A program made the translations under genes and the position numbers. Below the pieces are notes generated by a model. The model saw nothing but the letters and a program-made list of their open reading frames with translations, was not told the DNA's origin and made no database searches. A stretch of DNA of 64,000 bases from an uncultured Gammaproteobacteria bacterium (GTDB lineage: Bacteria > Patescibacteriota > Microgenomatia > UBA12405): positions 73,384-137,383 of the forward strand of contig CAYUZS010000003.1 in NCBI GenBank assembly GCA_964448705.1, read 5' to 3'. Below, one piece after another: positions 10,048 to 55,245 of this stretch (its first letter is position 1; each line of letters opens with the position of its first letter).

Positions 10048-10063
10048 ATTTTTTTAAATTTTA

Positions 10064-14313: not shown

Positions 14314-14318
14314 ATTTT

Positions 14319-14894: not shown

Positions 14895-14940
14895 TTTATC
14901 ATCTCTACTTGATTACTTGTGGTATCATCTAAACTAACCC

Positions 14941-15408: not shown

Positions 15409-15409
15409 A

Positions 15410-39240: not shown

Positions 39241-40323
39241 ATGGAAACCTCTCCAAAAAAAATTTTCGTTGTATTTAATAGTCTAAACATTGGCGGTATC
39301 GAAACTAAAATTGTCGACCTATGTCGCTACTACTCTAAACAAAAAGATATTCAACTCACTCTCCTCCTTAAACAAAAAACCGGTCCTTTAATCTCTAAAA
39401 TACCCCCAAACATTACCATCATTTCCCCGTTAAACTCGTCACCGGTCTATTTTCCTTTATGGTTGTCAATTCAGTTTTTTTATTCTCATCCCCAATTGGT
39501 CGTTTCTTTTGGCAACTATTCTTCAATTTGTACCATTTTCAGCAAACTATTTTTCAACCCCGGCATTAAAGTAATTATCAGTGAAGACTCCAGTATTATT
39601 GAACAAATTGATTCCGACACTTTTCCCGGATTAAGAAGGTTACTGGTCAAAATAACCTATCCTCTGGCCAACCTGATTATTACCCTCACCAAAGCAGGGA
39701 AAAATAAATTAGTAAAACTTGTCCCCAATACAAAAAACAAAACCATTATTCTCAACAACTGGTTACCTCTTAGTTTCAAATCTACGGGCATTTCCAAAAA
39801 AGATATTGATATTTTATATATAGGCCGTTTTGAACCCCAAAAAAACCCTTTAGCCTTCTTAATTATTTCCAAAAATCTGATAAAAACCATTCCCGGGATT
39901 AAAATTGTTATGATTGGACAGGGATCCCTCCGGACAATTATTCAGGAATTTATAATCAAAAATAAATTGGTCAAAAATATTTCCTTACTCCCGGCAACCA
40001 CCCATCCGGAAAAATTCTATCAACGTTCTAAAATCCTCCTCCTCACCTCCCGGCATGAAGGTTTCCCGTTAACCATTCTCGAAGCCATTTCCGGTTACTG
40101 TCTCCCGGTTTGCCGTCAACTCCGGGAATTAGACAATTTTTTTAATTATAAAAAAAAGAGTTTACTATTTAATTCATCTCAATCAGCAATTGATCTGATC
40201 AACCGACTCTTCTCCAGCCCGGAGCTCCGCAAAGACTTGATTCATCATTATTGGAAAAAAGTTATCAAACAGCAAAACCTTAACTTCAATAAAACTTTAA
40301 CAGTTTTTTCTAAGTACCTATGA
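39241..40323 (+). CDS. Glycosyltransferase family 4
   Basis: RHEGFPLTILEAISGYCLPV is a GT4 motif. Confidence 0.75.
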   Translation: METSPKKIFVVFNSLNIGGIETKIVDLCRYYSKQKDIQLTLLLKQKTGPLISKIPPNITIISPLNSSPVYFPLWLSIQFFYSHPQLVVSFGNYSSICTIFSKLFFNPGIKVIISEDSSIIEQIDSDTFPGLRRLLVKITYPLANLIITLTKAGKNKLVKLVPNTKNKTIILNNWLPLSFKSTGISKKDIDILYIGRFEPQKNPLAFLIISKNLIKTIPGIKIVMIGQGSLRTIIQEFIIKNKLVKNISLLPATTHPEKFYQRSKILLLTSRHEGFPLTILEAISGYCLPVCRQLRELDNFFNYKKKSLLFNSSQSAIDLINRLFSSPELRKDLIHHYWKKVIKQQNLNFNKTLTVFSKYL

Positions 40324-41420
40324 AGCCAAAAAAAATAATGATTGTCTTTTTCGATATGGCACTCGGCGGTATTCAAAGAAAGATTCTCGACATCATTAAC
40401 CACCTTCACAACCATTATTCGAATATTCAAATTACCTTATGTTTAATCGAAAAAAAAGGTATTTTTATTGATCGTATTCCAGATTATGTCAAAATAAAAA
40501 AGCCTCCATTTAGAACTCCCATTCTTTACTTACCTTGGTTTACCTTGTGGATTACCAAGGAAATTATCAGTAATAAGCCGGATTATATTTTACCGTTTAT
40601 GGATGTCAGTGCTGTTGCCGTCCTGGCCGCCAAACAACTTCTGTTTTGGAAAAAACCTCTTGTCTGTATCGGTGAAGACATCCTCACTTCAAAATACTTA
40701 CTCACCGAATCACAGCCCGATCTTCGTCGAAAAATGATTCGTTATTTTTATCCAAAATCCGACAAAATTTTAGTTCAAACACCCGTCCAGAAAGCTGATC
40801 TTATCGATATTGTCGGACAAAACATCGCCGACAAAATAATCGTTTCCCCAAATTGGCTGCCTCTGGAATTTCCACCCCAAAAATTACCTCCGCGTTCTGA
40901 TCGCTCAATTGACATTCTTTATCTTGGCCGTTTTGATTCCCAAAAAAACCTTTCTTTATTTATCACCATTATTTCCCAACTTCAGCACAGCATTCCCCGT
41001 CTTAAAGCTGTATTAGTCGGTAGTGGACACGAAACCAGAAAACTCAAGAGGCTTACCAAACATCTGGGACTTTCTAAAAATATCCAATTTTTCCCCGCCA
41101 CCACAGATCCTACCTCTTTCTATACCCAATCTAAAATATTTCTTCTTACCTCAGATTATGAAGGCTTTCCTCTTACCCTTCTGGAAGCCATCTCCTGTGG
41201 TTGCATTCCAATTTCCAGAAATTTATCCGAAATAAAACAATTTTTTAACCAGGATTCCAAGCATTATTTGTTTTCCAATCCCGACGAAGCCGCGGTTCTC
41301 CTCAACTACACTCTCACTCATCCACCCAAACCTTCGTTGAAACTTTATTATCAGCGAATCCTCACACTTCAGAACAAATATCTGCATCTCTATGTTAAAC
41401 ATCTCCTTTTTAAAAAATGA
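40320..41420 (+). CDS. Glycosyltransferase family 4 (paralog of preceding gene)
   Basis: DYEGFPLTLLEAISCGCIPIS is a GT4 motif. The domain order matches the 39241-40323 gene. Confidence 0.75.
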   Translation: MKPKKIMIVFFDMALGGIQRKILDIINHLHNHYSNIQITLCLIEKKGIFIDRIPDYVKIKKPPFRTPILYLPWFTLWITKEIISNKPDYILPFMDVSAVAVLAAKQLLFWKKPLVCIGEDILTSKYLLTESQPDLRRKMIRYFYPKSDKILVQTPVQKADLIDIVGQNIADKIIVSPNWLPLEFPPQKLPPRSDRSIDILYLGRFDSQKNLSLFITIISQLQHSIPRLKAVLVGSGHETRKLKRLTKHLGLSKNIQFFPATTDPTSFYTQSKIFLLTSDYEGFPLTLLEAISCGCIPISRNLSEIKQFFNQDSKHYLFSNPDEAAVLLNYTLTHPPKPSLKLYYQRILTLQNKYLHLYVKHLLFKK

Positions 41421-43297
41421 AGTTATCTTCATCGCTCACAGTCGCAGTTATCACCTGTCGTCGTCCCAAACTTCTTAAACGTTGTCTTTTTAGTTTTTTA
41501 AAACAAAAAACTGCTTTAAGAATTATTATTATTGACAACGATTATCAACAGACTTCAAAAAAAATTTGTCAATCATTCTCAAAAAAGCTGTCTTTAAAAT
41601 ACTTGGTCTGTCCGATAAAAAGTATCCCCAGGGCAAGAAGTTTAGCCATTGAATCCTGTGAAACTAATTATTTGGCTTTTATCGACGACGATTGCTGTAT
41701 CGATCGTCACTGGTCAGAAATTGCCCGGGAACTCATTTCCGCCAATCCAAACACCGCCTATTGGCAGGGACAAACTTATCCTCCCGCCAAACCTTCCTTG
41801 CTTGATTCTGCCCATTTCCAAATCTATTCCCAATGGCTGCTTCATCCCCACCAGGGATTGGATACAAAAAATATCATTATTAATTTATCTGTGGTCAAAA
41901 AATATCATCTTTCTTTTGACCCCAACTTTCCAATCTTTGAGGATATAGATTTTGGCCTTCAACTGAATCAGCATCATCTTTCCGGAATGTTTATCCCTAA
42001 ATTAATAGTCAGCCACCATGAATATATAAAATTGTTCCCATTAATCCGAAAATATTTTTATCGCGGTCAAATCAAATTTGCTATCAATCAAAAATGGGGC
42101 AATTTTGATAACTATCAGCCTACTCTCGACTTCTTTACCATCATTAAAAAATTAGCTACCAACTTTTTCAAAGCACTTCTGGAAATTTCATTTGACTCTG
42201 GTTTCAAATATGCCCAAAAGTATCAGATTCTTCCCAACGACAACCATCTTTCTATAATAAATCGCCATGACCGGGGAGCCAACCAAGAACGCCTTGAAGC
42301 CATAACTAATTTTCTCCACAAAAACAATTTTCAGGTAACCAATATTGATTCGGAAAAAATTCTTCTCGATTGCCAATTGCATCGACGTCAGTTCTTAAAA
42401 GAAAATCCCCTAGCCTACCTATTAATTCATTTATCTCTACTTAATAATCCACCTTTCAGATATTTTTTTAGCCTACTTCTTCGCGGTTATCTTCTCAATT
42501 TTTATCTTCATCGTTTGCATACCAAAAAAGTAATTTCTCAATATTCCGAAGACATTTTTGTCGCCATATATCCACACCGCTTTCAACTTATCCTTGATTT
42601 ACCGACCATTTTTTCTGAAGAATTAAAACTCAGTCACCGGCTGCCTCTACCGATTATTAATATAATAACCCGTCTGGAAAACCTCGCCTATTCCAAAGCC
42701 GATCATACTTGCTTCCATTGGTCCGGCTTTCTTAATTATGCACGTAAAATTGGAAAAAAAATTCCAAACAGTTTTATCCTCAACTGGGGGTGTAATTCAG
42801 TTTCAAAAGTAGCTGTATTTAAAAAACATCCCAAAATAATTTATCTTGGCGATTTTACTTCACCTTGGACCAATCCCTCATTACTACTCAGACTGCAGAA
42901 AACATCTTCTATCGACATTTTTAGCTATCAAACTTCATCCAAATTTAAAACCAAAGGCTATTTAAAAAATCTCCAAAAACTCAGCCTTTATCAATTTGGT
43001 CTAATAACTATCACCAATGATCCGCTCAGAAACAATGGTTTTTCTGCCAAGTACTTAAAATATCTTGAGCATGGTCTACCGGTTCTTTGCCCTGAATGGC
43101 GTCGGGATCCCCTGCTAAAACCAGCCACCATTTACTATAATGAAAGAAATTTTGTCAAACAGCTTAAAAAATATTCTCAAAAAAAACTTTGGTTAAAAAA
43201 ACACCAAGCTGCCCTAAGAATTTCCAAAAATTTAAATTGGAACAAAACTCTACTTCCATTGTTACCGAAAATTAATTCATCTAAAAATGAATATTAG
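41417..43297 (+). CDS. Glycosyltransferase family 2 with large C-terminal extension of unknown function
   Basis: The N-terminus (VAVITCRRPKLLKRCL...IIIDND...AFIDDDC) is a GT-A fold with a DxD motif. The ~350-aa C-terminal region is unassigned. Confidence 0.6.
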   Translation: MKLSSSLTVAVITCRRPKLLKRCLFSFLKQKTALRIIIIDNDYQQTSKKICQSFSKKLSLKYLVCPIKSIPRARSLAIESCETNYLAFIDDDCCIDRHWSEIARELISANPNTAYWQGQTYPPAKPSLLDSAHFQIYSQWLLHPHQGLDTKNIIINLSVVKKYHLSFDPNFPIFEDIDFGLQLNQHHLSGMFIPKLIVSHHEYIKLFPLIRKYFYRGQIKFAINQKWGNFDNYQPTLDFFTIIKKLATNFFKALLEISFDSGFKYAQKYQILPNDNHLSIINRHDRGANQERLEAITNFLHKNNFQVTNIDSEKILLDCQLHRRQFLKENPLAYLLIHLSLLNNPPFRYFFSLLLRGYLLNFYLHRLHTKKVISQYSEDIFVAIYPHRFQLILDLPTIFSEELKLSHRLPLPIINIITRLENLAYSKADHTCFHWSGFLNYARKIGKKIPNSFILNWGCNSVSKVAVFKKHPKIIYLGDFTSPWTNPSLLLRLQKTSSIDIFSYQTSSKFKTKGYLKNLQKLSLYQFGLITITNDPLRNNGFSAKYLKYLEHGLPVLCPEWRRDPLLKPATIYYNERNFVKQLKKYSQKKLWLKKHQAALRISKNLNWNKTLLPLLPKINSSKNEY

Positions 43298-44360
43298 TAA
43301 AAAAATTAAATCAACCGGAATCAATCTCTCCATTTGGTGGCAGAATCTTTTAATAAAAGTCTCTCTCAATCTTAATAAACCTCTAAACAAACCTACTTCC
43401 ATTACTTTTGACCTAACTCCAAATTGTGTTCTAAAATGCAAGCAATGCGATATTTGGAAAAGTCCTCCAGAAACACAACTCTCACTAAAAGAAGCTAAAA
43501 TTATCATTGACCGGCTTCACTCTTGGTTAGGTAGTTGCTACCTCTTTTTTACCGGCGGTGAACCGTTAACAAACACAGACCTACCCGAAATAATTGGTTA
43601 TGCCTACAGAAAAGGCATCCTTTCTCACATCAACAGTAATGCCGTCCTGATAGACAAGTCACTGGCAAAAAAACTCACTCTAAACCACCTTTATGCTATT
43701 TCCATCTCTCTTGATGGGGCTACAGCCAAAACTCACGATTATCTCCGTGGTGTTTCAGGAACATTCGATAAAGTCATCAAAGCTATTAATTATCTTCAAA
43801 AAACAACTCATTCTCCTAAAATTTACATCAATACAGTCATAATGAAAAATAACACTATGGAATTAGAAAAATTAATAGAACTAACCAAAAAATACCACAC
43901 TAACGGCATTATGTTTCAATGTTTACTTCCCAATCTCGGACAAAACAGTGTCAAAGCTATTTCCAAAAACAATCCTTTATGGCCAAACAAAACTAAAATT
44001 ACAGCCGTTATAAAAAGGATTATCCAAAAAACCTCTTCTGAACCTCTTATTCTAAGTTCCAAACAGGATTTGGAAACCTCTCTGAAATATTATAAAAATC
44101 CCGGACTATTTAATAAATTTGTCTGTGCCGCCGGAATAAATAATTTTATTGTTGATCATCATGGAGACGTTAGGCTTTGTTTCGACTTTCCTGCTATCGG
44201 AAATATTATCAGGGAAAACCCCCAATCTATCTGGTGGAGCCAAAAAGCTGTTACCCAGCGTCAACAAATCCGCCACTGTCAACGAAATTGCAAGCTTATT
44301 GCCTGTAACAAAGCTGATACTGCCAGAAATAAAACTGTCGCTGCTAATCTTTTTGAATAA
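43287..44360 (+). CDS. Radical SAM enzyme with C-terminal SPASM/twitch-like Cys cluster
   Basis: CVLKCKQCDIW is the CxxxCxxC motif and GGEPL is a SAM-binding motif. The C-terminal Cys-rich segment reads CAAG...C...CQRNCKLIAC. Confidence 0.7.
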   Translation: MNISKKIKSTGINLSIWWQNLLIKVSLNLNKPLNKPTSITFDLTPNCVLKCKQCDIWKSPPETQLSLKEAKIIIDRLHSWLGSCYLFFTGGEPLTNTDLPEIIGYAYRKGILSHINSNAVLIDKSLAKKLTLNHLYAISISLDGATAKTHDYLRGVSGTFDKVIKAINYLQKTTHSPKIYINTVIMKNNTMELEKLIELTKKYHTNGIMFQCLLPNLGQNSVKAISKNNPLWPNKTKITAVIKRIIQKTSSEPLILSSKQDLETSLKYYKNPGLFNKFVCAAGINNFIVDHHGDVRLCFDFPAIGNIIRENPQSIWWSQKAVTQRQQIRHCQRNCKLIACNKADTARNKTVAANLFE

Positions 44361-45015
44361 TTCCTACTCCCGGATCCTCTAATATCTCGAATAGTTTGTA
44401 TTTTCCTGAGTCTTTAATTTCTTTCCAAAATTTTCTGGTTCCATAAAAGTTTCCATCCTTGTCCGGACTTCCGATATCATGGATCGCCAAAAATCCGCCT
44501 TTTTCCACATTCTGCCAGAACATTTCAAAATCTTTTTTCACCCCTGTATAAGAATGGTCGCCGTCAATATGAACGTAACCATATTTTATTTTTTCATTTT
44601 TTGCGTAATATTCATCTGATTTCATCACCCTCAATTTTATATACTTCTCCAAACCAAATTTTCCAAAATGTTTTTTTTCATCTACCTTCTTCCAAAAACC
44701 AACTCCTCCCCAATGTTCTCCAGCAACTTTATCATAATCATCCATATCAAATCCGGCATCAACAAAATCAACTAAACCCATCCCGTTATCTTTGCACGCC
44801 AAAGCGCATACGGCCGGAATATATCCGTATTTACTGCCAACACATAGTACCTTATCCGGTCTGATTTGCCTAATCAGTGAATAATGGATCCAGCCATAAC
44901 CTAAACCTCCCCGATTGTTATCCCAGTGATGCCAATTGTCATCTTTTGCATAATTCTCAATAAATTTCCTGACATTTTTCTTATCTATTAAATCTTTTGT
45001 CCCGCTGAATATCAT
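44344..45015 (-). CDS. Class I SAM-dependent methyltransferase (TylF/CmcI-like)
   Basis: VLCVGSKYG and the C-terminal YVHIDGDHSYTGVKKDFEMF...GGFLAIHD fit a macrocin-O-MTase-like fold. Confidence 0.55.
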   Translation of the reverse strand: MIFSGTKDLIDKKNVRKFIENYAKDDNWHHWDNNRGGLGYGWIHYSLIRQIRPDKVLCVGSKYGYIPAVCALACKDNGMGLVDFVDAGFDMDDYDKVAGEHWGGVGFWKKVDEKKHFGKFGLEKYIKLRVMKSDEYYAKNEKIKYGYVHIDGDHSYTGVKKDFEMFWQNVEKGGFLAIHDIGSPDKDGNFYGTRKFWKEIKDSGKYKLFEILEDPGVGIIQKD

Positions 45016-45041
45016 TCTCCATTATAATACTATCATTCTCT

Positions 45042-46196
45042 ATGCTTTCAACCTTCTTCAAATCATCTCCATCCAAACCAATCGACTTTTCTTTTTTTCC
45101 CTCCTTAAATCAAAATCTTTTTATCCATTCCACCCCTTTTTTTCTAACAAATAAATCAATTGTAAAAAATCGTTTACTAGAACTGCATCAAACAATGTCT
45201 CAATTTCACCTGGCTCAGGCAAAAATTGCCTACTCATTCAAAACCAATTACGACGTCGCCAAAAATATCAGATTTGACATGGCTGAAGTTGTTTCTCAAA
45301 GAGAATTAAAAATGTCACTCCATAATCACTACCATTATTCACAAATTATTTTTAATGGACCAAACAAAGGCAATTTTCTTCCACTTTTGTACCGTCCAAT
45401 CACTCTCAACCTTGACCATTTTTCTGAAATTGAAAATCTTCCTCCATACTCCTCAAAAATAACCGCTAAAATTGGTCTCCGTTTTAACTCACTCTCCTCA
45501 CCTAGTCGTTTTGGCTTCAATCTTGAAAACGGCCAAGCCAGCCAAGCATTTTCTCTTTTAAAACAGAAAAAATACCCCCTTTCCGGAATCCACTTTCATC
45601 TTGGCAGCGATATTCAAAACTCTGACCTCTATCAGCAATGTTCTCTGGCCATTTCTTCCTTCATCAAAAAACACCATCTCTTTGCTGACCTTGTTTATAT
45701 CGACTTTGGTGGTGGTTTTCCCTCACACGGTTTAATCCACCAAACCGACATCCAATCTTTACCAAAGATATCGAATTATATTAATAGTATCGTTCAACCA
45801 CTGTCCAAAATTGTTGATTTTTCTAAGACAGAAATTATTCTGGAACCCGGTAGATATTTAGTCGACGACTCAACTGTCATGATAACCAAAGTTCTTAGCA
45901 CTATTGAAACTAGTAACCATCAGTTAATTACTGTCGATGCTGCAAACACTATGTTGCCCTCAACATGGTATCGACGCCATCTAATCAAAAATTTATCTGC
46001 GAATAATAACTTTAAAACTATAGAAACAATTATTTATGGCAGCAGCTGCCAGGAAACAGACATTTTATATCGCGGAAAATTCCAAAAGGTTTCTATTGGA
46101 GACCTTCTTGTTTTTTATTGTGTTGGTGCCTACAATCAAAGTCAAACTTCTTCGTTTATTTTTAATAAACCCAAAACCTATTTTATATATGACTAA
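45042..46196 (+). CDS. Fold-type III PLP-dependent decarboxylase (DAP/Orn decarboxylase-like)
   Basis: AYSFKTNY (Lys-containing), GIHFHLGSD, EPGRYLV and YGSSCQETD match family conserved boxes. The likely start is an internal Met near 45194. Confidence 0.55.
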   Translation: MLSTFFKSSPSKPIDFSFFPSLNQNLFIHSTPFFLTNKSIVKNRLLELHQTMSQFHLAQAKIAYSFKTNYDVAKNIRFDMAEVVSQRELKMSLHNHYHYSQIIFNGPNKGNFLPLLYRPITLNLDHFSEIENLPPYSSKITAKIGLRFNSLSSPSRFGFNLENGQASQAFSLLKQKKYPLSGIHFHLGSDIQNSDLYQQCSLAISSFIKKHHLFADLVYIDFGGGFPSHGLIHQTDIQSLPKISNYINSIVQPLSKIVDFSKTEIILEPGRYLVDDSTVMITKVLSTIETSNHQLITVDAANTMLPSTWYRRHLIKNLSANNNFKTIETIIYGSSCQETDILYRGKFQKVSIGDLLVFYCVGAYNQSQTSSFIFNKPKTYFIYD

Positions 46197-46950
46197 AAGA
46201 TTTAATCACCACTATTTTACCCTCCTCTCTGTTATGACCAAAACAGAGTTTATGAGCCGTTACAAAAGGGCTATTTTTGGTTTTCTATGGTTGTTTCTTA
46301 ACCCACTCTTTCAAATGCTAATCATCGGTACTGTCTTCTCTCACTTTATTAGTCTTCCAAACTACTATTTGTTCCTCTTTGGAGGTCTCCTTTTATGGCA
46401 GTTCTTTTCCTCCTCAATCACCAAATCAACCTATAGCTTTGTTTCTAACCGAAATCTGCTTCAAAAAACTCCTTTTCCTTTAGAAATAATCCCTATCTCT
46501 ATTATTCTTGCTGATTATATTAATCTACTCTTTTCCCTTCTGCTTTTTCTAACGACCACCGCCTTTGTAACTGGTCTCTCCTTAAAAGCTCTCTTGATTA
46601 TTCCCATTCTGCTATGGCTGCTGACTTTCTCAGTTGCTTTCTCCTTAATCACTTCTACTCTTAATGTTCGTTTCCGCGATACCAACTTTTTTGTTAACAC
46701 TCTTCTCATGCTTTGGTTTTATGCCACTCCCATCCTCTATCAAACCAACAGTCTACCTGGGTTTCTACAAAAATATCTGATTATCAATCCTTTGGCTTCA
46801 CTTTTCTCCCTATTTCATTATATTTTCTTTAATGCTCCTTTTCCAAACACTATTCTTATAATCACTAATCTTTTTACCACCATTGTAATCTTATTTTTAG
46901 GTATTTTTCTTTTCCGAAAAAATTACTCCTATTTTGTTGATTGGTTATAA
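46189..46950 (+). CDS. ABC-2-type transporter permease (Wzm/TagG-like polysaccharide exporter)
   Basis: The N-terminal EFMSRYKRAIFGFLWLFLNPL sequence is followed by 6 TM helices. The start is re-set to the Met at 46189; the ORF track started at 46036. Confidence 0.7.
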   Translation: MTKRFNHHYFTLLSVMTKTEFMSRYKRAIFGFLWLFLNPLFQMLIIGTVFSHFISLPNYYLFLFGGLLLWQFFSSSITKSTYSFVSNRNLLQKTPFPLEIIPISIILADYINLLFSLLLFLTTTAFVTGLSLKALLIIPILLWLLTFSVAFSLITSTLNVRFRDTNFFVNTLLMLWFYATPILYQTNSLPGFLQKYLIINPLASLFSLFHYIFFNAPFPNTILIITNLFTTIVILFLGIFLFRKNYSYFVDWL

Positions 46951-47956
46951 AACTATGTCAAAAGTTATTAAAATAAAACATTTATCCAAAAAATATTCTC
47001 TTCATTCTTCAAAACCCACTTTGATTGAACAGTTAAACCCAAAAGATAAAATTTACTGGGCTCTTAAAGACATTAACCTTACTGTAGAATCCGGAGAACG
47101 TGTCGGTTTTTTTGGTCCAAACGGTGCTGGTAAAACTACTCTACTCAAAATAATTTCCCACATTACCACTCCTGCTTCAGGAACAGTCACCACTAGTGGA
47201 AAAATAATTTCTCTAATTGAATTAACCGCTGGTTTTGACCAAGAGCTTACCGGTTATGAAAATATCAAACTTCAATTGGCACTTATGGCCGATTTCAATC
47301 AGGACCAAACCTCTCAGGTTATTTCAGACTGTATAAATTTTTCGGAACTATCAGATTTTATTCATCAACCGCTTTATACCTATTCCTCCGGTATGATTCT
47401 TCGTCTGGCTTTTTCGATTGCAACAGTCATTCCTGCTGATATTTTCATCGTTGACGAATTTTTGGCAGTTGGGGACACCGAATTTAAAAGTAAATGTGCC
47501 GAATATTTCAATCAACTTAAACTAAGTCATAAGACTATTCTTGCCTCCTCTCACGATCTTCAATGGCTGATTTCTTTTTGTGATAAGGTATACCCTATCA
47601 ATCATGGTCGCCTTGATCGGGAAAATTTTGTCACCCCCCAACATCTGGAATTCTTTCGGCGATCCCTCCAAAAAAACAGTTCTTCTGTCACGGTTACTAC
47701 CGGCAGTATGCTACCAACTCTTAATATTGGTCAGGTTGTTCCAATTAAAAATATCTCTTTCTCTAAAATAAAACCCGGCGACATTATTGCCTTCATGTTT
47801 ACCAATTTTCCTCAACCTATTGTTCATCGGGTAATCGCCATTGGCATCAACAACCGCCAACCTATTTTAGTTACCAAAGGAGACGCCCACAGCCAACCGG
47901 ACTCCTGGATGGTCACCAAAAAAGAATATCTTGGAATTATTCAATTTAATCACTAA
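46934..47956 (+). CDS. ABC transporter ATP-binding protein (Wzt/TagH-like) fused to C-terminal S26 signal-peptidase-like domain
   Basis: The Walker A motif GPNGAGKTT, the signature YSSGMILRL, the Walker B motif IFIVDEF and the H-loop SSHD are present. The C-terminal ~110 aa carry GSMLPTL (SPase box B Ser), GDIIAF, HRVIA (His in place of the catalytic Lys, as in ER/archaeal-type SPases) and KGDAHSQPDS (box E-like). Confidence 0.65.
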   Translation: MLIGYKTMSKVIKIKHLSKKYSLHSSKPTLIEQLNPKDKIYWALKDINLTVESGERVGFFGPNGAGKTTLLKIISHITTPASGTVTTSGKIISLIELTAGFDQELTGYENIKLQLALMADFNQDQTSQVISDCINFSELSDFIHQPLYTYSSGMILRLAFSIATVIPADIFIVDEFLAVGDTEFKSKCAEYFNQLKLSHKTILASSHDLQWLISFCDKVYPINHGRLDRENFVTPQHLEFFRRSLQKNSSSVTVTTGSMLPTLNIGQVVPIKNISFSKIKPGDIIAFMFTNFPQPIVHRVIAIGINNRQPILVTKGDAHSQPDSWMVTKKEYLGIIQFNH

Positions 47957-48914
47957 GTCTGTCCTTTATTTTCACATACATTGTCTCCCAAAACTCGCCT
48001 AACTTTTCAGCACTTTTCCTTATTCCTAGCCGAAGTTTCATCTCTGGAAATATCTTTTCAGTCATTTTTTCTTTCTTCCGTGAAATTTTCATTCTTTCAA
48101 AAACATCCGCCCTTTGTTTACAGGAAGAACATACCCCGCAAGGATACTTGTTTCCATTTGTACAGCTCCAAGTCTTTTCCAAAGGCAGACAATATTTTTT
48201 TCCCATTTCTACCACCTCTTCTTTTTCCATCCAGTTTCCAAACTGAGGCTCAAAAAATAGTGAATAATATTCAAAATTGGTATCGTCTCCAATCTCCCGA
48301 ATCAAATCTTGATATAACCTAATTCGGCTTAATGTCTGGCCTTTTATGGTTAACCCGTCAGTCGGTAATATCGCGGTTAAAATTGTCTTTACGGTTATAT
48401 CGTACCGGTATTTCAAATAAAAAGAATATTGTAATGCATAAATTGGGTATTGATAGAGAATATCCGGCAATAACCAAAACGACATCTTATTATTTACTAC
48501 TTGTGACAATAAATATTTATGATGAAAAAATTTTCCTGGTTTAATCATCCTGTATTCTTCCAAAATATTAGCAGGATAGGTATAAACATCCATTTCTTTT
48601 ACCGGCCAACTTAAACCCGGATATTTTTTTTGAAAATATTTATCAAAAAATTTCACCGATCTAGTGCTACCATTAAGGTTACCTCTCGTATATTTCTGTC
48701 TAATATAAACCGGATACACTTTTGTTCCATTACAAAGTAGATATTCCCATAACACAGTCGAGTCGATGCCTCCGGAAACCAACAGTATCGCCTCGTCCAA
48801 ATTCAAGTAATCTTTTAAGTTTCTATTTATTTCACTTTTATCAACTTTTTCAATCGGATTATCTTTTAACCTCTTTCGAAATTCACTTGAAGAAATCCTT
48901 GCTATTTGATTCAT
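47946..48914 (-). CDS. QueC-like PP-loop ATP pyrophosphatase (7-cyano-7-deazaguanine synthase family)
   Basis: The SGGIDS PP-loop is present. The C-terminal TWSCTNGNKYPCGVCSSCKQR matches the QueC Zn-binding CxxC..C tail. No other que genes were seen in the window. Confidence 0.55.
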   Translation of the reverse strand: MNQIARISSSEFRKRLKDNPIEKVDKSEINRNLKDYLNLDEAILLVSGGIDSTVLWEYLLCNGTKVYPVYIRQKYTRGNLNGSTRSVKFFDKYFQKKYPGLSWPVKEMDVYTYPANILEEYRMIKPGKFFHHKYLLSQVVNNKMSFWLLPDILYQYPIYALQYSFYLKYRYDITVKTILTAILPTDGLTIKGQTLSRIRLYQDLIREIGDDTNFEYYSLFFEPQFGNWMEKEEVVEMGKKYCLPLEKTWSCTNGNKYPCGVCSSCKQRADVFERMKISRKKEKMTEKIFPEMKLRLGIRKSAEKLGEFWETMYVKIKDRLSD

Positions 48915-49186
48915 TTTTCTTCTCTAATTATCCCAGTTTTAATACCTTTTTTCAAAAAAGACTTCACATCTTCCCTCGCCTCATCTTTTTCCACCTTATA
49001 GTGTTTATATAAAAAACTAACCATTTCTTCGATACTTTTTGGACTAACCAACAACTTCCATAAATCCACTGCCGTCCCTGAAAGAATCGTAATTCTCGAC
49101 TCACCTTCCACCGCAATCAACACCTCATCATTTCGATACTCGGAATAACATTTCTCCACCTTAACAAAAACATCCCTATCTCTCAT
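48911..49186 (-). CDS. PqqD-like peptide-binding protein (RiPP recognition element)
   Basis: The 91-aa protein has TAVDLWKLL...SIEEMVSFLYKHYKVEKDEAREDVKSFLKKGIKTGII, which fits the PqqD-family pattern (winged-helix RRE). A strong RBS (AAAGGATGGG) precedes it. Confidence 0.6.
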   Translation of the reverse strand: MRDRDVFVKVEKCYSEYRNDEVLIAVEGESRITILSGTAVDLWKLLVSPKSIEEMVSFLYKHYKVEKDEAREDVKSFLKKGIKTGIIREEK

Positions 49187-49201
49187 GTTTTCCCATCCTT
49201 T

Positions 49202-49309
49202 TTATCTCGCACAAGCACAGGACGCACAGACACATGATCCATCGGGACACTGTTTGGGTGTTTCTCCACCACATGCCAAAACAGAATTTAAAGAAATCAC
49301 TTTAATCAT
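49202..49309 (-). CDS. Unannotated 35-aa Cys-rich small peptide MIKVISLNSVLACGGETPKQCPDGSCVCASCACAR (candidate RiPP precursor)
   Basis: I found this by manual translation of the minus strand. It is absent from the ORF track because it is under 60 aa. It has six Cys in the C-terminal 23 residues after a hydrophobic leader-like N-terminus. It ends 15 nt upstream of the PqqD-like gene start. Confidence 0.4.
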   Translation of the reverse strand: MIKVISLNSVLACGGETPKQCPDGSCVCASCACAR

Positions 49310-49396
49310 CGGTTTTTGATAATCATTCCTATTTTGTTGCACCATAAAATAAATATACAAAAACCTTATCTTAAATGCAAATACCAGTTCTAATTT

Positions 49397-50461
49397 CTAT
49401 TTTACTAGTCTCATCACATCTCCCACAGTTATCAACACAATCAATAGCAGCAAAACCATCATTCCCACATTGTTTACCGCCATCTCCAGCTTTTGATTAG
49501 CTCTTTTTCTGGTAATCATTTCATAAAGTACAAAAATTATTCTTCCTCCGTCCAAAGCCGGAAAAGGCAGAACATTTACAATTGCCAAATTAACCGACAC
49601 TATTCCAAAAAAGTGAATCACCGCCAGCATCCCTTGGTTGGCTTTTATACTGCTGGTTGCTTCAAACATTCCAATCGGACCGGAAACATCTTTAGGCACC
49701 TGCCCTTGAAACAATCCACCGACCATCGACATTACTCCTCCGAAAATAATTTTGCCCCAATAATAGGCTTCCTTAAATCCGGCTCCGATCCCTTTGTAAA
49801 ACTCATACCATTTCACTTTCATCATTTCCGTATTGGAAATCGCCACCCCCAAACTCCCCTCACCTTCAGGAGGATTATCCCGCACTTGTACTTGTACGGA
49901 TAGGGCATTGCCCTGTCCCTCCCTAGAAATCTCCAATTCCACCTCTTTTCCTTTGTATTTCCCCACTTCTTCGGTTAATTGTTGTGGTGTTTCTATTTCC
50001 ACACCACCGACCTTTTTTACCTGGTCATCAACTTTTAATCCGGCAATTTCCGCCGGAGAATTCTTAGCCACTTCCAAAATTTTAACTTTATTTGTCTCTG
50101 TCGGTACTCCCAACACCGAATAAACGATTGAAAAAATTACCACCGCTGTCACCAAGTTCATCAGCACTCCTCCCAAAACTATCAGGGCTTTTTGCCACGG
50201 ATTTTTTGCTGCAAATGAATTTTTGTTTTTTGTCGCTCCTTTTTCGTTCAGATCCTCTCCGAACAACTTGCAAAATCCGCCGATCGGCAGCCAGTTTAAA
50301 CTCCATTCTGTTCCTTTCCACTTTTTAGCCTTTATTCTCGGTGGTAGTCCCAATCCAAACTCTTCCACTTTTACTCCTGTCAGCTTAGCTGCAAAAAAAT
50401 GGCCGAATTCATGAACCAAAACTAAAATCGACAATGCCACTACAAAAATAATGATATCCAT
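49397..50461 (-). CDS. rseP: RIP metalloprotease RseP (site-2 protease, M50) with PDZ domain
   Basis: The HExxH motif VHEFGHFFAAK is within the first TM. A PDZ domain and a C-terminal LDGG motif region are present. Confidence 0.85.
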   Translation of the reverse strand: MDIIIFVVALSILVLVHEFGHFFAAKLTGVKVEEFGLGLPPRIKAKKWKGTEWSLNWLPIGGFCKLFGEDLNEKGATKNKNSFAAKNPWQKALIVLGGVLMNLVTAVVIFSIVYSVLGVPTETNKVKILEVAKNSPAEIAGLKVDDQVKKVGGVEIETPQQLTEEVGKYKGKEVELEISREGQGNALSVQVQVRDNPPEGEGSLGVAISNTEMMKVKWYEFYKGIGAGFKEAYYWGKIIFGGVMSMVGGLFQGQVPKDVSGPIGMFEATSSIKANQGMLAVIHFFGIVSVNLAIVNVLPFPALDGGRIIFVLYEMITRKRANQKLEMAVNNVGMMVLLLLIVLITVGDVMRLVK

Positions 50462-50497
50462 AAGATTTATTATTCTATCAATTCTTCTCTCTCAATC

Positions 50498-51049
50498 CTA
50501 TCCTCTAATCTCAGTTTCTTTCTTTTTTGAAATCTCTTCCAGTTTATCGATAAACTGATCCGTTAATTTTTGCAATTGTTCCTCATCTCTTTTAAATTCA
50601 TCCTCCCCGATTTCTTTTGCATTTTTTGCATCCATTATTTTTTTCCGAAAATCTGCTCTGGCATCCCGTATCATTCCTCTGGCACCTTCTAATTTTCTTC
50701 CCAAAAGTTTAATATAATCCTCTCTCTGTTCCTGAGTTAACATCGGCAGTGACATTCGGATCACCTGGCCGTCAATTGCCGGTGTCATTCCAATATTTGC
50801 CGCCTGAATGCCATTGGCAATTTCTCTAATTAAAGCCTGATCCCATGGTTGAAAAGTCAAACTTCTCACATCCGGAACACCAATCGATCCCAACTCTATC
50901 AGTCTCATTTTTTGAGCGCCGTACACTGTCACCGCCACATTTTCTATTAGTCCCGGAGTTGCCCTCCCTGTCCTGATCGATGAAATATCATTCACAAATA
51001 AATCTCTTATCTTGCCCATTCGGGTATTTACGTCGCTGAAGTTGATCAT
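50498..51049 (-). CDS. frr: Ribosome recycling factor
   Basis: The 183-aa protein carries the conserved RRF pattern (IRTGRATPGLIENVAVTVYG). Confidence 0.9.
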   Translation of the reverse strand: MINFSDVNTRMGKIRDLFVNDISSIRTGRATPGLIENVAVTVYGAQKMRLIELGSIGVPDVRSLTFQPWDQALIREIANGIQAANIGMTPAIDGQVIRMSLPMLTQEQREDYIKLLGRKLEGARGMIRDARADFRKKIMDAKNAKEIGEDEFKRDEEQLQKLTDQFIDKLEEISKKKETEIRG

Positions 51050-51136
51050 ATAGCAAAATTATACCAAACCTTTAAGCTAATGTTTTTCTCAAAAAAAATA
51101 CCCCCTCTTTAAAAAAAGAGAGGGTATCCATTAATT

Positions 51137-51595
51137 TTAAATTTCAAATCTTTGAAATCTACTTATTTTTATATTTTCTCCGAATTTAGCTACCAGTCCG
51201 GTCACTAAATCTTTAATTTTTTTAGTGCTGTCTTTTATAAACTCCATTTCCATCAAATCCTCTACATTTTCCGGATTCATAGCCGCCACCTGCAAACAAA
51301 CATCTTTGGCCACTGCCACAAATTCTTCATTTTTAGCCACAAAATCTGTCTCGCAGAGCATTTCCACCATCACCCCGACTTTTCCGGTAGAATGGGTATA
51401 AGTAGCCACCAAACCTTGATGTGTCTCTCTTTCAGCTTTGGTTTCAGCTTTTTTAAAACCTTTTTCTTTCAAAATTTCTTTGGCTTTTTTTTCATCGCCG
51501 TCAGCCTCTTCTACTGCTGCTTTGATTTCCATTATTCCCAAACCGGTTTCGATTCTGATTTTTTTAACTAATTCAATTATTTGTTTTTGTTCCAT
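51137..51595 (-). CDS. tsf: Elongation factor Ts (short form)
   Basis: The N-terminal UBA-like sequence ELVKKIRIETGLGIMEIKAAVEEADGD is present. The probable start is the Met at 51595; the ORF-track extension to 51649 overlaps a noncoding repeat. Confidence 0.8.
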   Translation of the reverse strand: MEQKQIIELVKKIRIETGLGIMEIKAAVEEADGDEKKAKEILKEKGFKKAETKAERETHQGLVATYTHSTGKVGVMVEMLCETDFVAKNEEFVAVAKDVCLQVAAMNPENVEDLMEMEFIKDSTKKIKDLVTGLVAKFGENIKISRFQRFEI

Positions 51596-51619
51596 TTTTT
51601 TATTTAATTTTTTAAAGTC

Positions 51620-51675
51620 CCTCTTGCTTGCCCGCCTCTGGAGGGTCAAAGAAGGATTTAGGGAGATTGTTTCGG
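51620..51675. repeat. GC-rich ~53-nt repeated intergenic element, copy 1 (copy 2 at 63347-63400)
   Basis: CCCTCTTGCTTGCCCGCCTCTGGAGGGTCAAAGA(A/G)GG(A/G)TTAGGGAGATTGTT is near-identical at both loci, seen directly in the sequence. Both copies lie in the 5' leader of a minus-strand gene: tsf and the dprA-like gene. Confidence 0.6.
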
Positions 51676-52563
51676 TTAAACCCCTGCAGCTTTAATTGCC
51701 CGACCAACTTCTTCGACGATTAAATTGATCGACTTAACACTGTCATCGTTGGCTGGTATCGCCAAATCCACTTTTCTTGGATCAGCGTCAGTGTCCACAA
51801 TTGCTACCGTTTTCAGATTTCTCATCTTCGCCTCTTTATTAGCTGTTTTTTCAAAACCGGCATCAACCATAAAAACTATATCAAAGAGCTTCTCCAAATG
51901 TGTCAAACCGCCGATAATTCTTTCCAGTCTGATTTGTTCCTTATTTAAATCCAACAATTCTTTTTTAGTTTTATCCGTATACAAATTTTTACTTAATGCT
52001 TCTTTAGTATCGTTGAATTTTTTTATATTTTTGCGAATTTGTTCCCAGTTGCTGATTGTTCCGCCCAGCCATCTGTCGGTTACATAAGCCACACCGGCAT
52101 CTTCGGCTACTCTTTTTACTACTTCTCTGGCTTGTCTTTTGGTACCTACCAACACAATTTGTTTGCCGTTTCTTCGGGAATTATATATATAGTTGCAAGC
52201 TTTCTCTAATCCATCCAAAGTCTTAACCAAATCGATAATCTGAATTCCGTCTTTGGCTATATAAATATTTTCTTTGGCTTTAGGATGAGTTTTGGAAATT
52301 TTGTGCCCTAAATGACAACCCGCTGCTAACAAATCTTTTAATCCTATAGTTAAAGAGTATTTCTTATCTTCTTTAACCAACTCTTTTTTAACAACTTCCT
52401 TTTCTGTCTGTTCTGCCACCTTAGCGCTGGCCTTATCCAATTTAACTTTCTCGTTAAGTTTTTTAATGTTTTCAGCAGTAATATTGCTCTGCTTTTTGGC
52501 CTTAACTACCAATGCTTTTTTAACCAGCTTTTTGCCGGTTCTGTTGACTGTTTTTGTTTTCAT
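51676..52563 (-). CDS. rpsB: 30S ribosomal protein S2 with ~75-aa Lys/Ala-rich N-terminal extension
   Basis: The S2 core begins at LLAAGCHLGHKISKTHPK and the protein sits in the conserved rpsB-tsf-frr order. The N-terminal KA-rich extension is low-complexity. Confidence 0.85.
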   Translation of the reverse strand: MKTKTVNRTGKKLVKKALVVKAKKQSNITAENIKKLNEKVKLDKASAKVAEQTEKEVVKKELVKEDKKYSLTIGLKDLLAAGCHLGHKISKTHPKAKENIYIAKDGIQIIDLVKTLDGLEKACNYIYNSRRNGKQIVLVGTKRQAREVVKRVAEDAGVAYVTDRWLGGTISNWEQIRKNIKKFNDTKEALSKNLYTDKTKKELLDLNKEQIRLERIIGGLTHLEKLFDIVFMVDAGFEKTANKEAKMRNLKTVAIVDTDADPRKVDLAIPANDDSVKSINLIVEEVGRAIKAAGV

Positions 52564-52697
52564 ACTAAGCTTTTATTTTACCCGTCGAAGCTTAAAAAAT
52601 TAATAATAAAATTTTTAAGCGAAGTCGGGTTATCTGATTTGGGGTAAATTTAACCCAAAGCTTGATAAATTTTCAAATTTTTAACTTACGGATTATA

Positions 52698-52946
52698 TCA
52701 CAGCTGGAATTGTCGGGTGTATCTTACCGGTCGGACATCTATCACTTCCCTCCCGGTTATCTTATCAATATAAGGTCCCGATACTGACGGACAACAACTT
52801 TCTCTGAAAGTTCCCATATCAATTGTGATTATCTCTTTCAGTGAAATATCGAAATTTTTTTGGCCCTGTTGTAAAGCTCTTAAATGAATCTCCGTTAGAC
52901 AATTTCCTAACGTTTGTTTGCATATTTCACATTTTTCAATTTTCAT
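52698..52946 (-). CDS. Hypothetical small Cys-containing protein (CEICK...CCP)
   Basis: The call rests on the ORF only. Confidence 0.25.
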   Translation of the reverse strand: MKIEKCEICKQTLGNCLTEIHLRALQQGQKNFDISLKEIITIDMGTFRESCCPSVSGPYIDKITGREVIDVRPVRYTRQFQL

Positions 52947-52959
52947 ATTTTTGATTAAT

Positions 52960-53400
52960 TTATAATTTATTTTCTCTCGCTGAAATAAAAAATTTTCCTT
53001 TCTCCACCTTACTTCCCTGCATCACCGTTAATACCCCTTTATCAGTCCGTAAACACATTACCTCCGTAGTTTCATCTTCTTTAATTTTACCCCTAGTTTC
53101 ACAATATTCTTTATAATTTTTCCAGTCTTGTATTTTCCCCCCGATTTTTTTCCCGGTTAATCTTTTTATATATTCAAAAGTATCTTTCCTCATTTCACAA
53201 AGACTGCAATTAGGTTCCATTCCTCCGGCGAACGGACAAATCTTTCTCGGTACCTCTCCCCTTAAAACCGGACACTGTCCCAATACAAAATTTCTCGAAT
53301 CGAGGGCATCTTCATTTTCCATATATCTTAATACTTGATTTACACCTTCAATCGGCAGTGTTAAACAGTTAATTTCTATTGTTCGGCGGAATGTTGACAT
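52960..53400 (-). CDS. Hypothetical Cys-rich protein (CPVLRG...CPFAGG...CSLC)
   Basis: The ORF has a tight arrangement with its neighbours (4-nt overlap with the next gene). Confidence 0.25.
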   Translation of the reverse strand: MSTFRRTIEINCLTLPIEGVNQVLRYMENEDALDSRNFVLGQCPVLRGEVPRKICPFAGGMEPNCSLCEMRKDTFEYIKRLTGKKIGGKIQDWKNYKEYCETRGKIKEDETTEVMCLRTDKGVLTVMQGSKVEKGKFFISARENKL

Positions 53401-54545
53401 TACTGACCTCCCCCTGCAGAGATTTTTTTATATGTTTCATTTTTTATTTCCAAATATCTTTGCCTGCTGGCTGCGTTCGCGGCAGCAATCGCATTTCTTA
53501 CCTCTCTTGGAGTCATCGATAAGTCAGGTGATCCGCTAATTTCACCCAATAATCTGTATGTTGTATAAAGATTCAACCAGGATGCCGTCTGGATTGCTCC
53601 TGCCAAACCGGTAATTGCCAGCATTGGAATTGCCGTTCCTGCAACCAAATTTGCCTGTTGAGCCATCACTATCGATCTTGAAGCTGCTGCCATTGCCTGT
53701 ACTGCTGCCGTGTCAAACATATCTGTCGCAGTTGCCTGCAGCACTCCTTTAATCGCTTCATTTGATTCCTTAGCCATTATCGGTATTTTTGACAGCCTGG
53801 TTTTTTCCCTAACAATTTCTTTCGCTATCTCACTTACACTTCTATCCCCCATAGATAATGCCGCTATCATACCCTGTCCTAATTTAGAAAGGTTGTCCTG
53901 AATCTCTTTTACTTCTTTGTCCATACCTAATTGTTTATCATATTTATCGGCATTATCCGCCAATTTTGATCCGCTAGATTTTATTATTTTTCCTGCCGTT
54001 TCCAACATTTTTCCATTTCTCTCCACTGCCCTATCCAAACTGGTCATATTTTGCAATACTGCTTTTTTACTATCGGCCACCACCTTTACTAAATCCACCC
54101 AAGGTTCAAATATTATCGGATATTCTTTGGCTATCTTAGCCATATTTGAGCTACCTCTCTGTTTTGCCAGCGACTCACAAATCTCAAATGCTATTCTCGA
54201 TCTCTCTACCAAATCCTTATTCGGATCCATCACTTTTATCAAATCTTTAGTTGCCACACTCAAATCCACCGCTAAATTTCCACCGGCAATATTAACCTCT
54301 AAACATGTCTTAATTAAAGTCGCATAATAACTGCCGGATAATGCACTGGTATCTAATCCTGTTCCCAAACCCAGATTGGCCATTTCTTTAATCACCCACT
54401 GTTTCTGTTCAAACGTTTCTCTCGGTCCTCCGAATTTTTCAATTTCCTTGCTCTCAATCATTTGATCCCGCAAACTCAGCGCCACATTTTGCACCGGAGC
54501 CGGCTCCACAGTACGATTTCTTAATCTCTCAATAAAATTTGGCAT
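53400..54545 (-). CDS. Hypothetical protein with C-terminal hydrophobic segment
   Basis: The 381-aa protein has a long alpha-helical body and the VAGTAIPMLAITGLAGAIQ TM-like segment near its C-terminus. Confidence 0.3.
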   Translation of the reverse strand: MPNFIERLRNRTVEPAPVQNVALSLRDQMIESKEIEKFGGPRETFEQKQWVIKEMANLGLGTGLDTSALSGSYYATLIKTCLEVNIAGGNLAVDLSVATKDLIKVMDPNKDLVERSRIAFEICESLAKQRGSSNMAKIAKEYPIIFEPWVDLVKVVADSKKAVLQNMTSLDRAVERNGKMLETAGKIIKSSGSKLADNADKYDKQLGMDKEVKEIQDNLSKLGQGMIAALSMGDRSVSEIAKEIVREKTRLSKIPIMAKESNEAIKGVLQATATDMFDTAAVQAMAAASRSIVMAQQANLVAGTAIPMLAITGLAGAIQTASWLNLYTTYRLLGEISGSPDLSMTPREVRNAIAAANAASRQRYLEIKNETYKKISAGGGQ

Positions 54546-54689
54546 TTTTATTTTTAATCAATAATTTTTAATTTCTAAAAAAAGTCGAAAAAAGGAGGAG
54601 GAAAGTGAAAGTTGGGTTTGGGTTGGGTTTTTGGTGTTTCGGTTTTGTTTGCTTTTTGTTTAATCCCCCCGGAGGGGGTTTCCCCCCTC

Positions 54690-55076
54690 CTAGCCTCCAT
54701 CCAGTCCTTGCAGCCACTCCCTGACGGGGGTGACCAAGAATGCTAAATTCTCAATCGCCAGCAGGGTCAATAAAGCCATGCTGACAAACCAGATCCCCAT
54801 CATCGATAAGATAATGGCGGCACAAACCAACAACACTTCGAGTGCAGATAAGAATCTGCTACTTTCGAAGGCCGCCAATGTGGCAACAACTGCCAGTAGT
54901 ACCATCGCCAGTACGTTCGTTTCCTCCGATGTACCAATCAGGTACATCGAAAAAAACAGTAAACCCGCTTGAATTATATTTTTTAACATTTTAAATTCCC
55001 TTTCTTTTCCCAAAAATCCCCTTTCGAGGTTAATCCAAACCAATTCCAATATATTTTTGGCGCTGGTTTGGACCAA
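54690..55076 (-). CDS. Small two-TM membrane protein (VirB2/TrbC pilin-like topology)
   Basis: The 128-aa protein has two long hydrophobic helices. The resemblance to pilins is topological only. Confidence 0.25.
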   Translation of the reverse strand: MVQTSAKNILELVWINLERGFLGKEREFKMLKNIIQAGLLFFSMYLIGTSEETNVLAMVLLAVVATLAAFESSRFLSALEVLLVCAAIILSMMGIWFVSMALLTLLAIENLAFLVTPVREWLQGLDGG

Positions 55077-55245
55077 CCTCTATCCTTTTTTCGACTTGTT
55101 AAAGTTCTCCCTCTCGGGATATAAAAAAAGCCCCACTCCACCCGGCGCATTACCGAATTTCGTTTAAGGCTTCTGATTGTTTCAAACAACTGCTTTCAGC
55201 ATCTTTCTGAAACATAAGGAAATATACACCACCAATACACACAAG

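Follow-up and report, generated by a model that had tools for sequence, protein, structure and literature searches.

A 64,000 nucleotide (nt) stretch of contig CAYUZS010000003.1, referred to here as the window, has a gene in which the ATPase of an ATP-binding cassette (ABC) exporter is fused to a signal peptidase-like domain of the S26 type. The gene lies on the + strand at 46955..47956, stop codon included, and codes for a protein of 333 amino acids (aa). It probably specifies a cytoplasmic leader peptidase that is coupled to a type-V (ABC-2) exporter, within a gene set resembling those of ribosomally synthesised peptides with post-translational modifications (RiPPs). The observations concern the way in which the protein is built from its domains, the catalytic residues that it retains, its predicted fold, a cytoplasmic location by topology, the linkage to other genes, and a leader motif that is conserved in small peptides encoded nearby.

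The list of open reading frames (ORFs) begins the fusion gene at a TTG codon at 46934. The likely start is the ATG at 46955, 4 nt past the stop codon of the preceding permease gene, and the product translated from it is identical to database protein P0001. The first-pass annotation had described a single ORF that fuses an ABC ATPase and an S26-like domain, with the concern that a frameshift or misjoin at ~47600 had merged two separate genes. The concern can be settled without reads: the identical 333-aa protein was assembled independently from run SRR8925774, and the frame is kept in homologues. A search of 5.8 billion proteins found at least 24 further clusters (at 90% identity) of full-length fusions of 336-357 aa, with a coverage of 95-99% and an identity of 34-40%. 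These come from many samples and pipelines and the reading frame is continuous across the junction of the two domains in all 24, so that a single fused frame is present in each of the 25 proteins aligned (window protein included). Many of the clusters carry precomputed ABC_tran and Peptidase_S24 matches.

A profile of the C-terminal domain was also compared with 1.84 billion representatives at the 50%-identity level. Eighteen ATPase fusions are among the best 150 matches, and each of the 18 has the full catalytic motif set. A genome scan with a narrow alignment of the domain gave five fusion loci and ten weaker S26 matches, mostly ordinary or unclear. The AlphaFold2 model of the whole fusion is confident over both domains (pLDDT 85.5). 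In public annotation, the fusion proteins either go under [quoted passage not shown] or lack a name. Carriers are metagenome-assembled genomes (MAGs) of Candidatus Pacebacteria, MAGs of Candidatus Microgenomatus, and other MAGs, including two labelled "Pseudomonadales". Since Pacebacteria and Microgenomatus are among them, the family belongs at least in part to the Patescibacteria, or Candidate Phyla Radiation (CPR).

The N-terminal part of the fusion (aa 1-222; 46955..47620, + strand) is a nucleotide-binding domain (NBD) of the Wzt/TagH type by Pfam, NCBIfam and the alignment. Pfam ABC_tran matches residues 37-169 (E 5.7e-20), and the NCBIfam models for TagH and Wzt, the ATPases of teichoic-acid and O-antigen/galactan export, match residues 1-222 (E 1e-42 to 1e-48). 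The Walker A motif is at G54-T62, the signature at Y143-S-S-G-M147, the Walker B motif with the catalytic Glu at D167-E168, and the H-loop at H200. Residues G54-N56-G57-G59-K60-T62, S144-G146-M147, D167-E168 and H200 are invariant in the 25 homologues; the NBD is thus complete, as had been noted from the sequence of the window. The Wzt carbohydrate-binding domain PF14524 was not found in the fusion with Pfam, and neither a C39 peptidase nor an ABC_membrane match was found with Pfam and NCBIfam. The peptidase is instead of the S26 type and is C-terminal to a stand-alone NBD. The preceding gene (46189..46950, + strand) encodes a 253-aa ABC-2 permease of the Wzm/TagG type (type V; PF01061) whose best match is Wzm.

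The S26 core (aa 243-333; 47681..47953, + strand) is ~90 aa in size, lacks a membrane anchor and is of the Sec11/archaeal type according to Pfam, NCBIfam, the alignment and the models. Pfam Peptidase_S26 (PF10502) matches residues 243-296 with 24.8-27.2 bits (gathering cutoff 22.9), and NCBIfam TIGR02228, "signal peptidase I, archaeal type", matches residues 238-327 with 70-74 bits (trusted cutoff 51.85). The latter alignment spans positions 26-116 of the 158 in the model; the protein lacks the model's N-terminal anchor and its C-terminal tail, the last ~40 residues. All four S26 boxes listed in the first-pass annotation are present: GSMLPTL, GDIIAF, HRVIA and GDAHSQPDS. The putative catalytic residues are Ser251 in the S-x-x-P box (codon AGT, 47705-47707), His291 in the HRV motif (CAT, 47825-47827), and Asp310 and Asp316 in the GD...D box (GAC, 47882-47884 and GAC, 47900-47902), all on the + strand. 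These four are invariant in 25/25 fusions at an overall identity of ~37%; S251-M252-x-P254, H291-R292, G309-D310 and D316 are likewise invariant in the alignment of the C-terminal domain.

A comparison of sequence profiles with the PDB finds SEC11C at E 5.6e-13. The SGSMEP, HRV and GDNN..D motifs of human SEC11A/C, in which the endoplasmic reticulum (ER)-type enzyme has its catalytic Ser, His and Asp, align with the corresponding motifs of the fusion. His291 aligns with the histidine of HRV, a position at which ER/archaeal-type enzymes have their general base and bacterial signal peptidases (SPases) have Lys; the earlier assignment of this residue holds. The AlphaFold2 model of the C-terminal domain alone (pLDDT 90.1) predicts the beta-barrel catalytic fold of S24/S26 enzymes. 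A Foldseek search of the PDB with this model ranks SEC11C and SEC11A first and bacterial SPase I after them; the structures that match best are those of SEC11C/A, SipA, LexA and SPase I, with no Wzt glycan-binding domain among them. Because both searches rank SEC11A/C and the motifs align, the modelled domain is a catalytic barrel of clan SF (S24/S26), of the Sec11/archaeal subtype, and not a carbohydrate-binding module of Wzt.

Between the two domains is a linker (47621..47680, + strand) with a predicted helix at aa 228-240. This helix occupies the place of the membrane anchor in canonical signal peptidases, but is too weakly hydrophobic to span a membrane. No hydrophobic segment was found in the C-terminal 150 residues of the 25 fusions, where the highest Kyte-Doolittle mean over 19 residues is 1.33. 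Since no such segment separates the NBD from the C-terminus, the S26 domain must, judging from its sequence, be cytoplasmic, on the same side as the ATPase, as the first-pass annotation had proposed. S26 signal peptidases are membrane-anchored enzymes that work outside the cytoplasm. Given the predicted topology, processing of Sec preproteins by the fusion appears implausible.

It should be considered whether the S26 domain processes any peptide at all. It might be a pseudo-peptidase that binds leaders, similar to the C39-like domain of haemolysin-type exporters, or a LexA-like self-cleaving switch that releases or activates the ATPase. The weak Peptidase_S24 matches that Pfam also returns for the domain, its structural similarity to LexA, and the fact that the cytoplasm is the normal location for S24 proteins and an abnormal one for S26 are in accord with such a role. 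However, the sequence profiles favour S26B/Sec11 over S24, and the general base is a His accompanied by two conserved Asp and not the Lys of a LexA-type Ser-Lys dyad. A pseudo-enzyme would not be expected to hold four catalytic residues invariant at ~37% identity, and the linker, itself poorly conserved, shows no conserved Ala-Gly or Cys-Gly site for self-cleavage. A non-processing module is therefore rather unlikely.

Eleven distinct fusion loci were compared, the window and ten further ones, the latter designated by L numbers. In 11/11, the fusion is accompanied by a gene for a PqqD-type chaperone and by either one or two genes for a QueC-like PP-loop enzyme. All loci whose contig reaches far enough also have the ABC-2 permease. 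In the window, the PqqD-family peptide chaperone, or RiPP recognition element (RRE), is a 91-aa protein encoded at 48911..49186 (- strand; NCBIfam). The top NCBIfam match for all 11 PqqD proteins is the lasso-peptide chaperone model lasso_PqqD_Bac, with scores below the cutoff of that model. The QueC-like ATP pyrophosphatase (322 aa; 47946..48914, - strand) is identified by domain matches, an SGGxDS motif and zinc-type Cys. Its gene is convergent with the fusion gene and the stop overlaps the 3′ end of the latter. The SGGxDS motif and four zinc-type Cys are invariant in 12 QueC-like homologues. Among solved relatives, Cap9 is the closest; it is itself QueC-like and attaches a 7-deazaguanine carboxylate to the N-terminus of a protein (bioRxiv 10.1101/2025.04.06.647259).

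Important is the presence of a small ORF of 22-47 aa with a Y-x-[KR]-P motif beside the PqqD or the QueC-like gene in all 11 loci. The motif, in the fuller form K-K-Y-x-[KR]-P-x-[LI], is near the N-terminus, and the ORF is usually 3-25 nt upstream of the PqqD gene on the same strand. In eight fusion loci, the strict motif is present in 9 of 1506 small ORFs that begin with ATG. All nine are beside PqqD or QueC-like genes, and seven are in the usual position. YxxPxL is the leader motif bound by PqqD-type chaperones of lasso peptides (PMC6784204). The candidate precursor in the window (47 aa; 49202..49345, - strand), identified by its ORF and leader motif, is MVQQNRNDYQKPMIKVISLNSVLACGGETPKQCPDGSCVCASCACAR. 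Its end is 16 nt upstream of the start of PqqD, and it carries Y-Q-K-P-M-I as its leader motif, Ala at position Tyr+15 and a core rich in Cys. Precursor-like peptides from other fusion loci include MKKQLKKYVKPELKKNKVKINFAFAASK, MKKYNKPVLKKAKVKISIAAVEMN and MKTYIKPKCKRVKIKILAIIPE. An Ala at Tyr+15 is found in 8/11 of the peptides. Since S26 enzymes need a small residue at -1, we infer a putative cut after this Ala, in the window at ...SVLA/CGGETPKQC... (the slash marks the site). A GG is found only in the window peptide (ACGG) and in the Clostridial relatives described below.

The resemblance of the NBD and the permease to glycan exporters raises a second possibility, that the fusion is part of an ordinary Wzm/Wzt-like pair for a glycan or teichoic acid and that the S26-fold domain, in place of the Wzt carbohydrate-binding module, recognizes the polymer or its carrier, or has a regulatory function, with no connection to the peptide genes. 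A true Wzt C-terminal domain, PF14524, is indeed present in some of the NBD's relatives. Three glycosyltransferases are encoded upstream of the fusion in the window, and glycosyltransferase or Wzy genes are near the fusion in the window, L001, L003 and L029. Yet glycan genes are not conserved as neighbours of the fusion: they are absent beside it in L002, L004, L010 and L011, where the flanks have mevalonate and shikimate genes, while PqqD, QueC-like and leader-peptide genes are present in 11/11 loci. The fold of the C-terminal domain is also not that of a carbohydrate-binding module, and a binding role alone leaves the invariant Ser, His and two Asp unexplained. One contig (L013) has, apart from its fusion locus, an ordinary ABC-2 permease with a 243-aa NBD without S26 (13910-15438). 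Because this ordinary pair is on the same contig, it suggests that the fusion transporter is a specialised paralogue. A glycan or teichoic-acid exporter is hence quite improbable.

Relatives of the S26 domain are also found unfused. Ninety of the best 150 representatives matched by the C-terminal domain are anchor-less S26 proteins of ~100-170 aa (mini-S26), and 85 of these keep the catalytic motifs. In two loci, one from Oscillospiraceae/Ruminococcaceae by NCBI annotation and one from a Human Microbiome Project sample, the mini-S26 gene overlaps or abuts a gene for an ABC half-transporter of 592-599 aa that lacks C39. These are Clostridial (gut/rumen) operons, L005 at 4220-10582 and L026 at 4209-11273, with S26 genes of 110-111 aa. 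They also encode a GNAT protein, a precursor of 47-57 aa, PqqD, a radical S-adenosylmethionine (SAM)/SPASM enzyme, an HprK/ScmC-like protein and an NTP_transf_5 nucleotidyltransferase. The two precursors read YETPKI...SAGG/ISLF and YSKPII...NTGG/ISLF. Thus the S26 peptidase and the exporter are encoded by separate genes in one lineage and by a fused gene in another, always with the same kind of peptide and chaperone, a pattern that classically points to the two being functionally linked. The first-pass annotation had drawn a parallel with the C39 peptide exporters. This analogy gains from the PqqD gene and leader-motif ORF in all 11 fusion loci, and further from the unfused S26 genes beside C39-less exporters.

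The two Clostridial operons look like an uncharacterised RiPP family in which a mini-S26 stands in for C39. Other mini-S26 loci were observed. One (L028, 1039-1377 and 5907-6026) has a mini-S26 and a radical SAM gene and encodes MSAKQYVKPEITSYSAEDLLSLELACGTCCGGPCCPKND, which shares the leader motif and an "LACG" junction with the window peptide. In L017 (7795-12865) and L015 (2790-6831), a 54-aa peptide (...KKPYEKPRIILEEKIEGRAG/[VI]C...) with the motif YEKPRI is encoded directly upstream of an anchor-less S26 of 121-124 aa, which is followed by a protein of 1161-1508 aa. Pfam gave no informative annotation for these two loci, and weak invasin/Ig-like matches in the large protein of L017 only.

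The transporter could also serve in self-protection or recycling, as a LanFEG-type immunity or efflux pump whose peptidase degrades peptide that re-enters or is misprocessed. ABC-2 type pumps act as RiPP immunity systems in other classes, and a lantibiotic-protection ABC model gives a match of E 3e-17. Against this, the 11 fusion loci share no further leader-peptidase candidate and no other dedicated exporter, the conserved spacing from leader motif to small residue suggests site-specific processing, and the Clostridial mini-S26 is paired with the sole exporter of its cluster. There is thus little chance that this is its function. That the gene is an artefact of assembly or annotation, with two genes, one for an ABC ATPase and one for a signal peptidase, merged through a frameshift or chimeric join, can practically be dismissed in view of the independent assembly, the 24 clusters and 18 representatives that share the architecture, and the confident model of both domains.

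In the favoured reading, the leader peptidase coupled to an ABC-2 exporter, the fusion would be the ATPase subunit of a two-component exporter in which the place of the usual accessory domain at the C-terminus is taken by a Sec11-like S26 serine peptidase, predicted to be soluble and catalytically competent. For the protease activity, its substrate and cleavage site, the sequence of steps and the way in which they are coupled to export, the following is proposed. The PqqD chaperone would hold the precursor through the Y-x-K-P-x-L leader. The QueC-like ATP-dependent enzyme and a methyltransferase, and in the window a radical SAM/SPASM enzyme as well, would modify the precursor. The S26 domain, located under the transporter at the cytoplasmic face, would then remove the leader, with the likely site after the Ala at Tyr+15, and the permease/ATPase pair would export the product. 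It is conceivable, by analogy with Cap9 and as speculation, that the QueC-like enzyme uses ATP in a reaction with the amine that cleavage exposes. Alternatively, and equally as speculation, it could amidate a carboxylate of the peptide with an amine made by the decarboxylase described below. Either reaction would explain a need for leader removal in the cytoplasm. One recent precedent exists for a type-V ABC fold that secretes a RiPP, TmcBC (PMC13252029).

Several points weigh against this model. The NBD is closest in sequence to glycan and teichoic-acid exporters, and three or four of the fusion loci, the window included, adjoin glycosyltransferases. The PqqD matches fall short of the curated cutoffs. 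Most of the precursors are 22-28 aa and leave unusual cores of ~3-7 residues after the putative site, and the small peptide might be a scaffold and not a classical precursor. S26 enzymes normally act at the membrane surface on the trans side, and no characterised precedent for a cytoplasmic S26 enzyme was found in the literature.

Other genes near the fusion are conserved to different degrees. A Methyltransf_24 SAM-dependent methyltransferase gene (44344..45015, - strand, in the window) is present in the 10 of 11 fusion loci that reach far enough; the contig of the eleventh is too short. A decarboxylase dependent on pyridoxal phosphate is found in 6/8 compared loci and comes from two unrelated folds, that of the window (45042..46196, + strand) being of the ornithine/diaminopimelate/arginine (Orn/DAP/Arg) type by domain matches. 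The fold alternates between genomes: the Orn/DAP/Arg type is found in the window (45042-46196), L001 (9031-10182) and L003 (11259-12542), and the group II Pyridoxal_deC type in L002 (10532-11782), L010 (5294-6514) and L013 (10626-11873). Such a replacement by a non-orthologous enzyme suggests that the pathway requires a decarboxylation that yields an amine. The gene for the radical SAM/SPASM enzyme (43287..44360, + strand) is found, among the fusion loci, in the window only, alongside the only Cys-rich core. Because its occurrence matches that of this core, the enzyme is likely an accessory tailoring enzyme.

Some genomes have two QueC-like genes, as in L001 (5322-7219) and L002 (5755-7072 and 9058-10539). 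In L002, two full modules of PqqD, QueC-like enzyme and peptide flank one transporter, and the cores differ (...ALLARSE and ...FAFAASK). An origin of the QueC-like gene in Qat or type IV CBASS systems was considered and rejected, in that PADLOC gives a generic QueC match only and no partner genes. An M50 site-2 protease (RseP-like, with a PDZ domain; 49397-50461, - strand) was likewise rejected as the leader protease, being absent from fusion loci other than the window and L001. In these two its gene adjoins the precursor gene and is syntenic with those of ribosome recycling factor, EF-Ts and S2; it is probably housekeeping synteny that is unrelated to the peptide system.

The composition of the window is also unusual. 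GC skew, (G-C)/(G+C), is extreme from 8001 to 64000 (-0.21 to -0.36), and steps abruptly at ~8000, from ~-0.07 in 1-8000 to ~-0.35. The skew is the same for genes on the + strand (39241-47956) and on the - strand (8589-34269 and 47946-56319). By eye, the skew seems to affect the amino-acid composition: proteins encoded on the + strand look poor, relative to their homologues, in residues whose codons start with G.

The proposed system shares features with several known ones. As in the peptidase-containing ABC transporters (PCATs; C39, bacteriocin and lantibiotic exporters of the LanT type), the presumed leader protease is physically attached on the cytoplasmic side of an ABC exporter whose gene lies beside that of its putative peptide substrate, and the putative cut would follow small residues, GG in the Clostridial relatives and A/C-G-G in the window. 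In PCATs, however, the protease is the papain-like Cys enzyme C39 at the N-terminus of a polypeptide with the transmembrane domain and the NBD, and the exporter is type IV, whereas the fusion has a Ser/His S26 fold at the C-terminus of a separate NBD subunit of a type-V ABC-2 system. Leader recognition in the fusion system is moreover probably by a separate PqqD chaperone. With ER/archaeal SPase I (S26B: Sec11, archaeal SPase I and Bacillus SipW), the fusion has in common the TIGR02228 family, the SxxP, HR and GDxxxxxD motifs, the predicted fold and the Ser/His/Asp set, but it differs in having neither the transmembrane anchor nor the last ~40 residues of the model, and in being cytoplasmic and fused to an ATPase. 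The Wzm/Wzt and TagGH exporters have the same NBD and permease families, the two-gene operon, and an accessory domain at the C-terminus of the NBD. In the fusion, this accessory domain has a peptidase fold and is not PF14524, and the partner genes are for peptide maturation, not for glycans. The QueC-family protein modifiers, Cap9 of type IV CBASS and QatC, have the PP-loop and zinc-Cys cluster that the QueC-like enzyme keeps, but the latter is without CBASS or Qat partners and is paired with PqqD and a small peptide.

Lasso-peptide clusters, which consist of an RRE (B1), a protease (B2), a cyclase (C) and an exporter (D), are similar in several respects. Both have a PqqD-type RRE, that of the fusion loci matching lasso models best although below cutoff, and a leader of the YxxPxL type, set at a constant distance from a small residue that is conserved. 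Both also have a cytoplasmic leader protease (putative in the fusion), an ATP-dependent PP-loop enzyme and an ABC exporter. The B2 protease is a transglutaminase-like Cys enzyme, in contrast to S26, and the lasso cyclase is asparagine-synthetase-like, in contrast to the QueC-like 322-aa PP-loop enzyme of the window. Membership in the lasso class was rejected: no B2 or C homologue is present, and most of the predicted cores have 3-7 aa, versus at least ~14 aa with Asp/Glu at 7-9.

A broader reading may be put forward tentatively, as one that is possible but short of probable. The fusion would be the hallmark of a RiPP class, so far undescribed, that belongs to Patescibacteria (Microgenomatia-like CPR) and remakes lasso-peptide logic with non-homologous parts. 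The PqqD protein and the YxxPxL leader would be kept, a cytoplasmic enzyme with a signal-peptidase fold would take the place of the B2 cysteine protease, and a QueC-like PP-loop ligase that of the asparagine-synthetase-like cyclase. Compare Cap9: the ligase could acylate or cyclise the N-terminus freed by cleavage. The protease would be attached to the ATPase of the type-V exporter. As products, this reading predicts very small modified peptides of 3-7 residues or, in the window, a Cys-rich peptide of 22 residues, and mini-S26 proteins would be a widespread but so far unrecognised family of cytoplasmic leader peptidases of RiPPs. The fusion, cytoplasmic mini-S26 leader peptidases, and the set of PqqD and QueC-like genes are undescribed in the literature searched, which included the RRE-Finder papers, a 2025 paper on RRE definition and a 2026 survey of the QueC family.

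In its most likely role, as judged from sequence, the fusion would combine a protease fold and a transporter type not described before for peptide trimming and export. If this role is correct, the known working place and substrates of the S26 fold would be extended to an anchor-less enzyme on a cytoplasmic ATPase. The fusion would also be a second, independent solution, next to the C39 exporters, to the coupling of leader removal to peptide export. It would differ from these in the protease fold, the point of attachment and the transporter class, differences that would be useful for understanding and engineering export-coupled maturation. Few natural products are known from CPR bacteria. The genes described here would provide these organisms with a compact set, consisting of a precursor, PqqD, a QueC-like enzyme, a methyltransferase, a decarboxylase and an exporter-protease, and would point to peptide modification as a possible new role for the QueC family.

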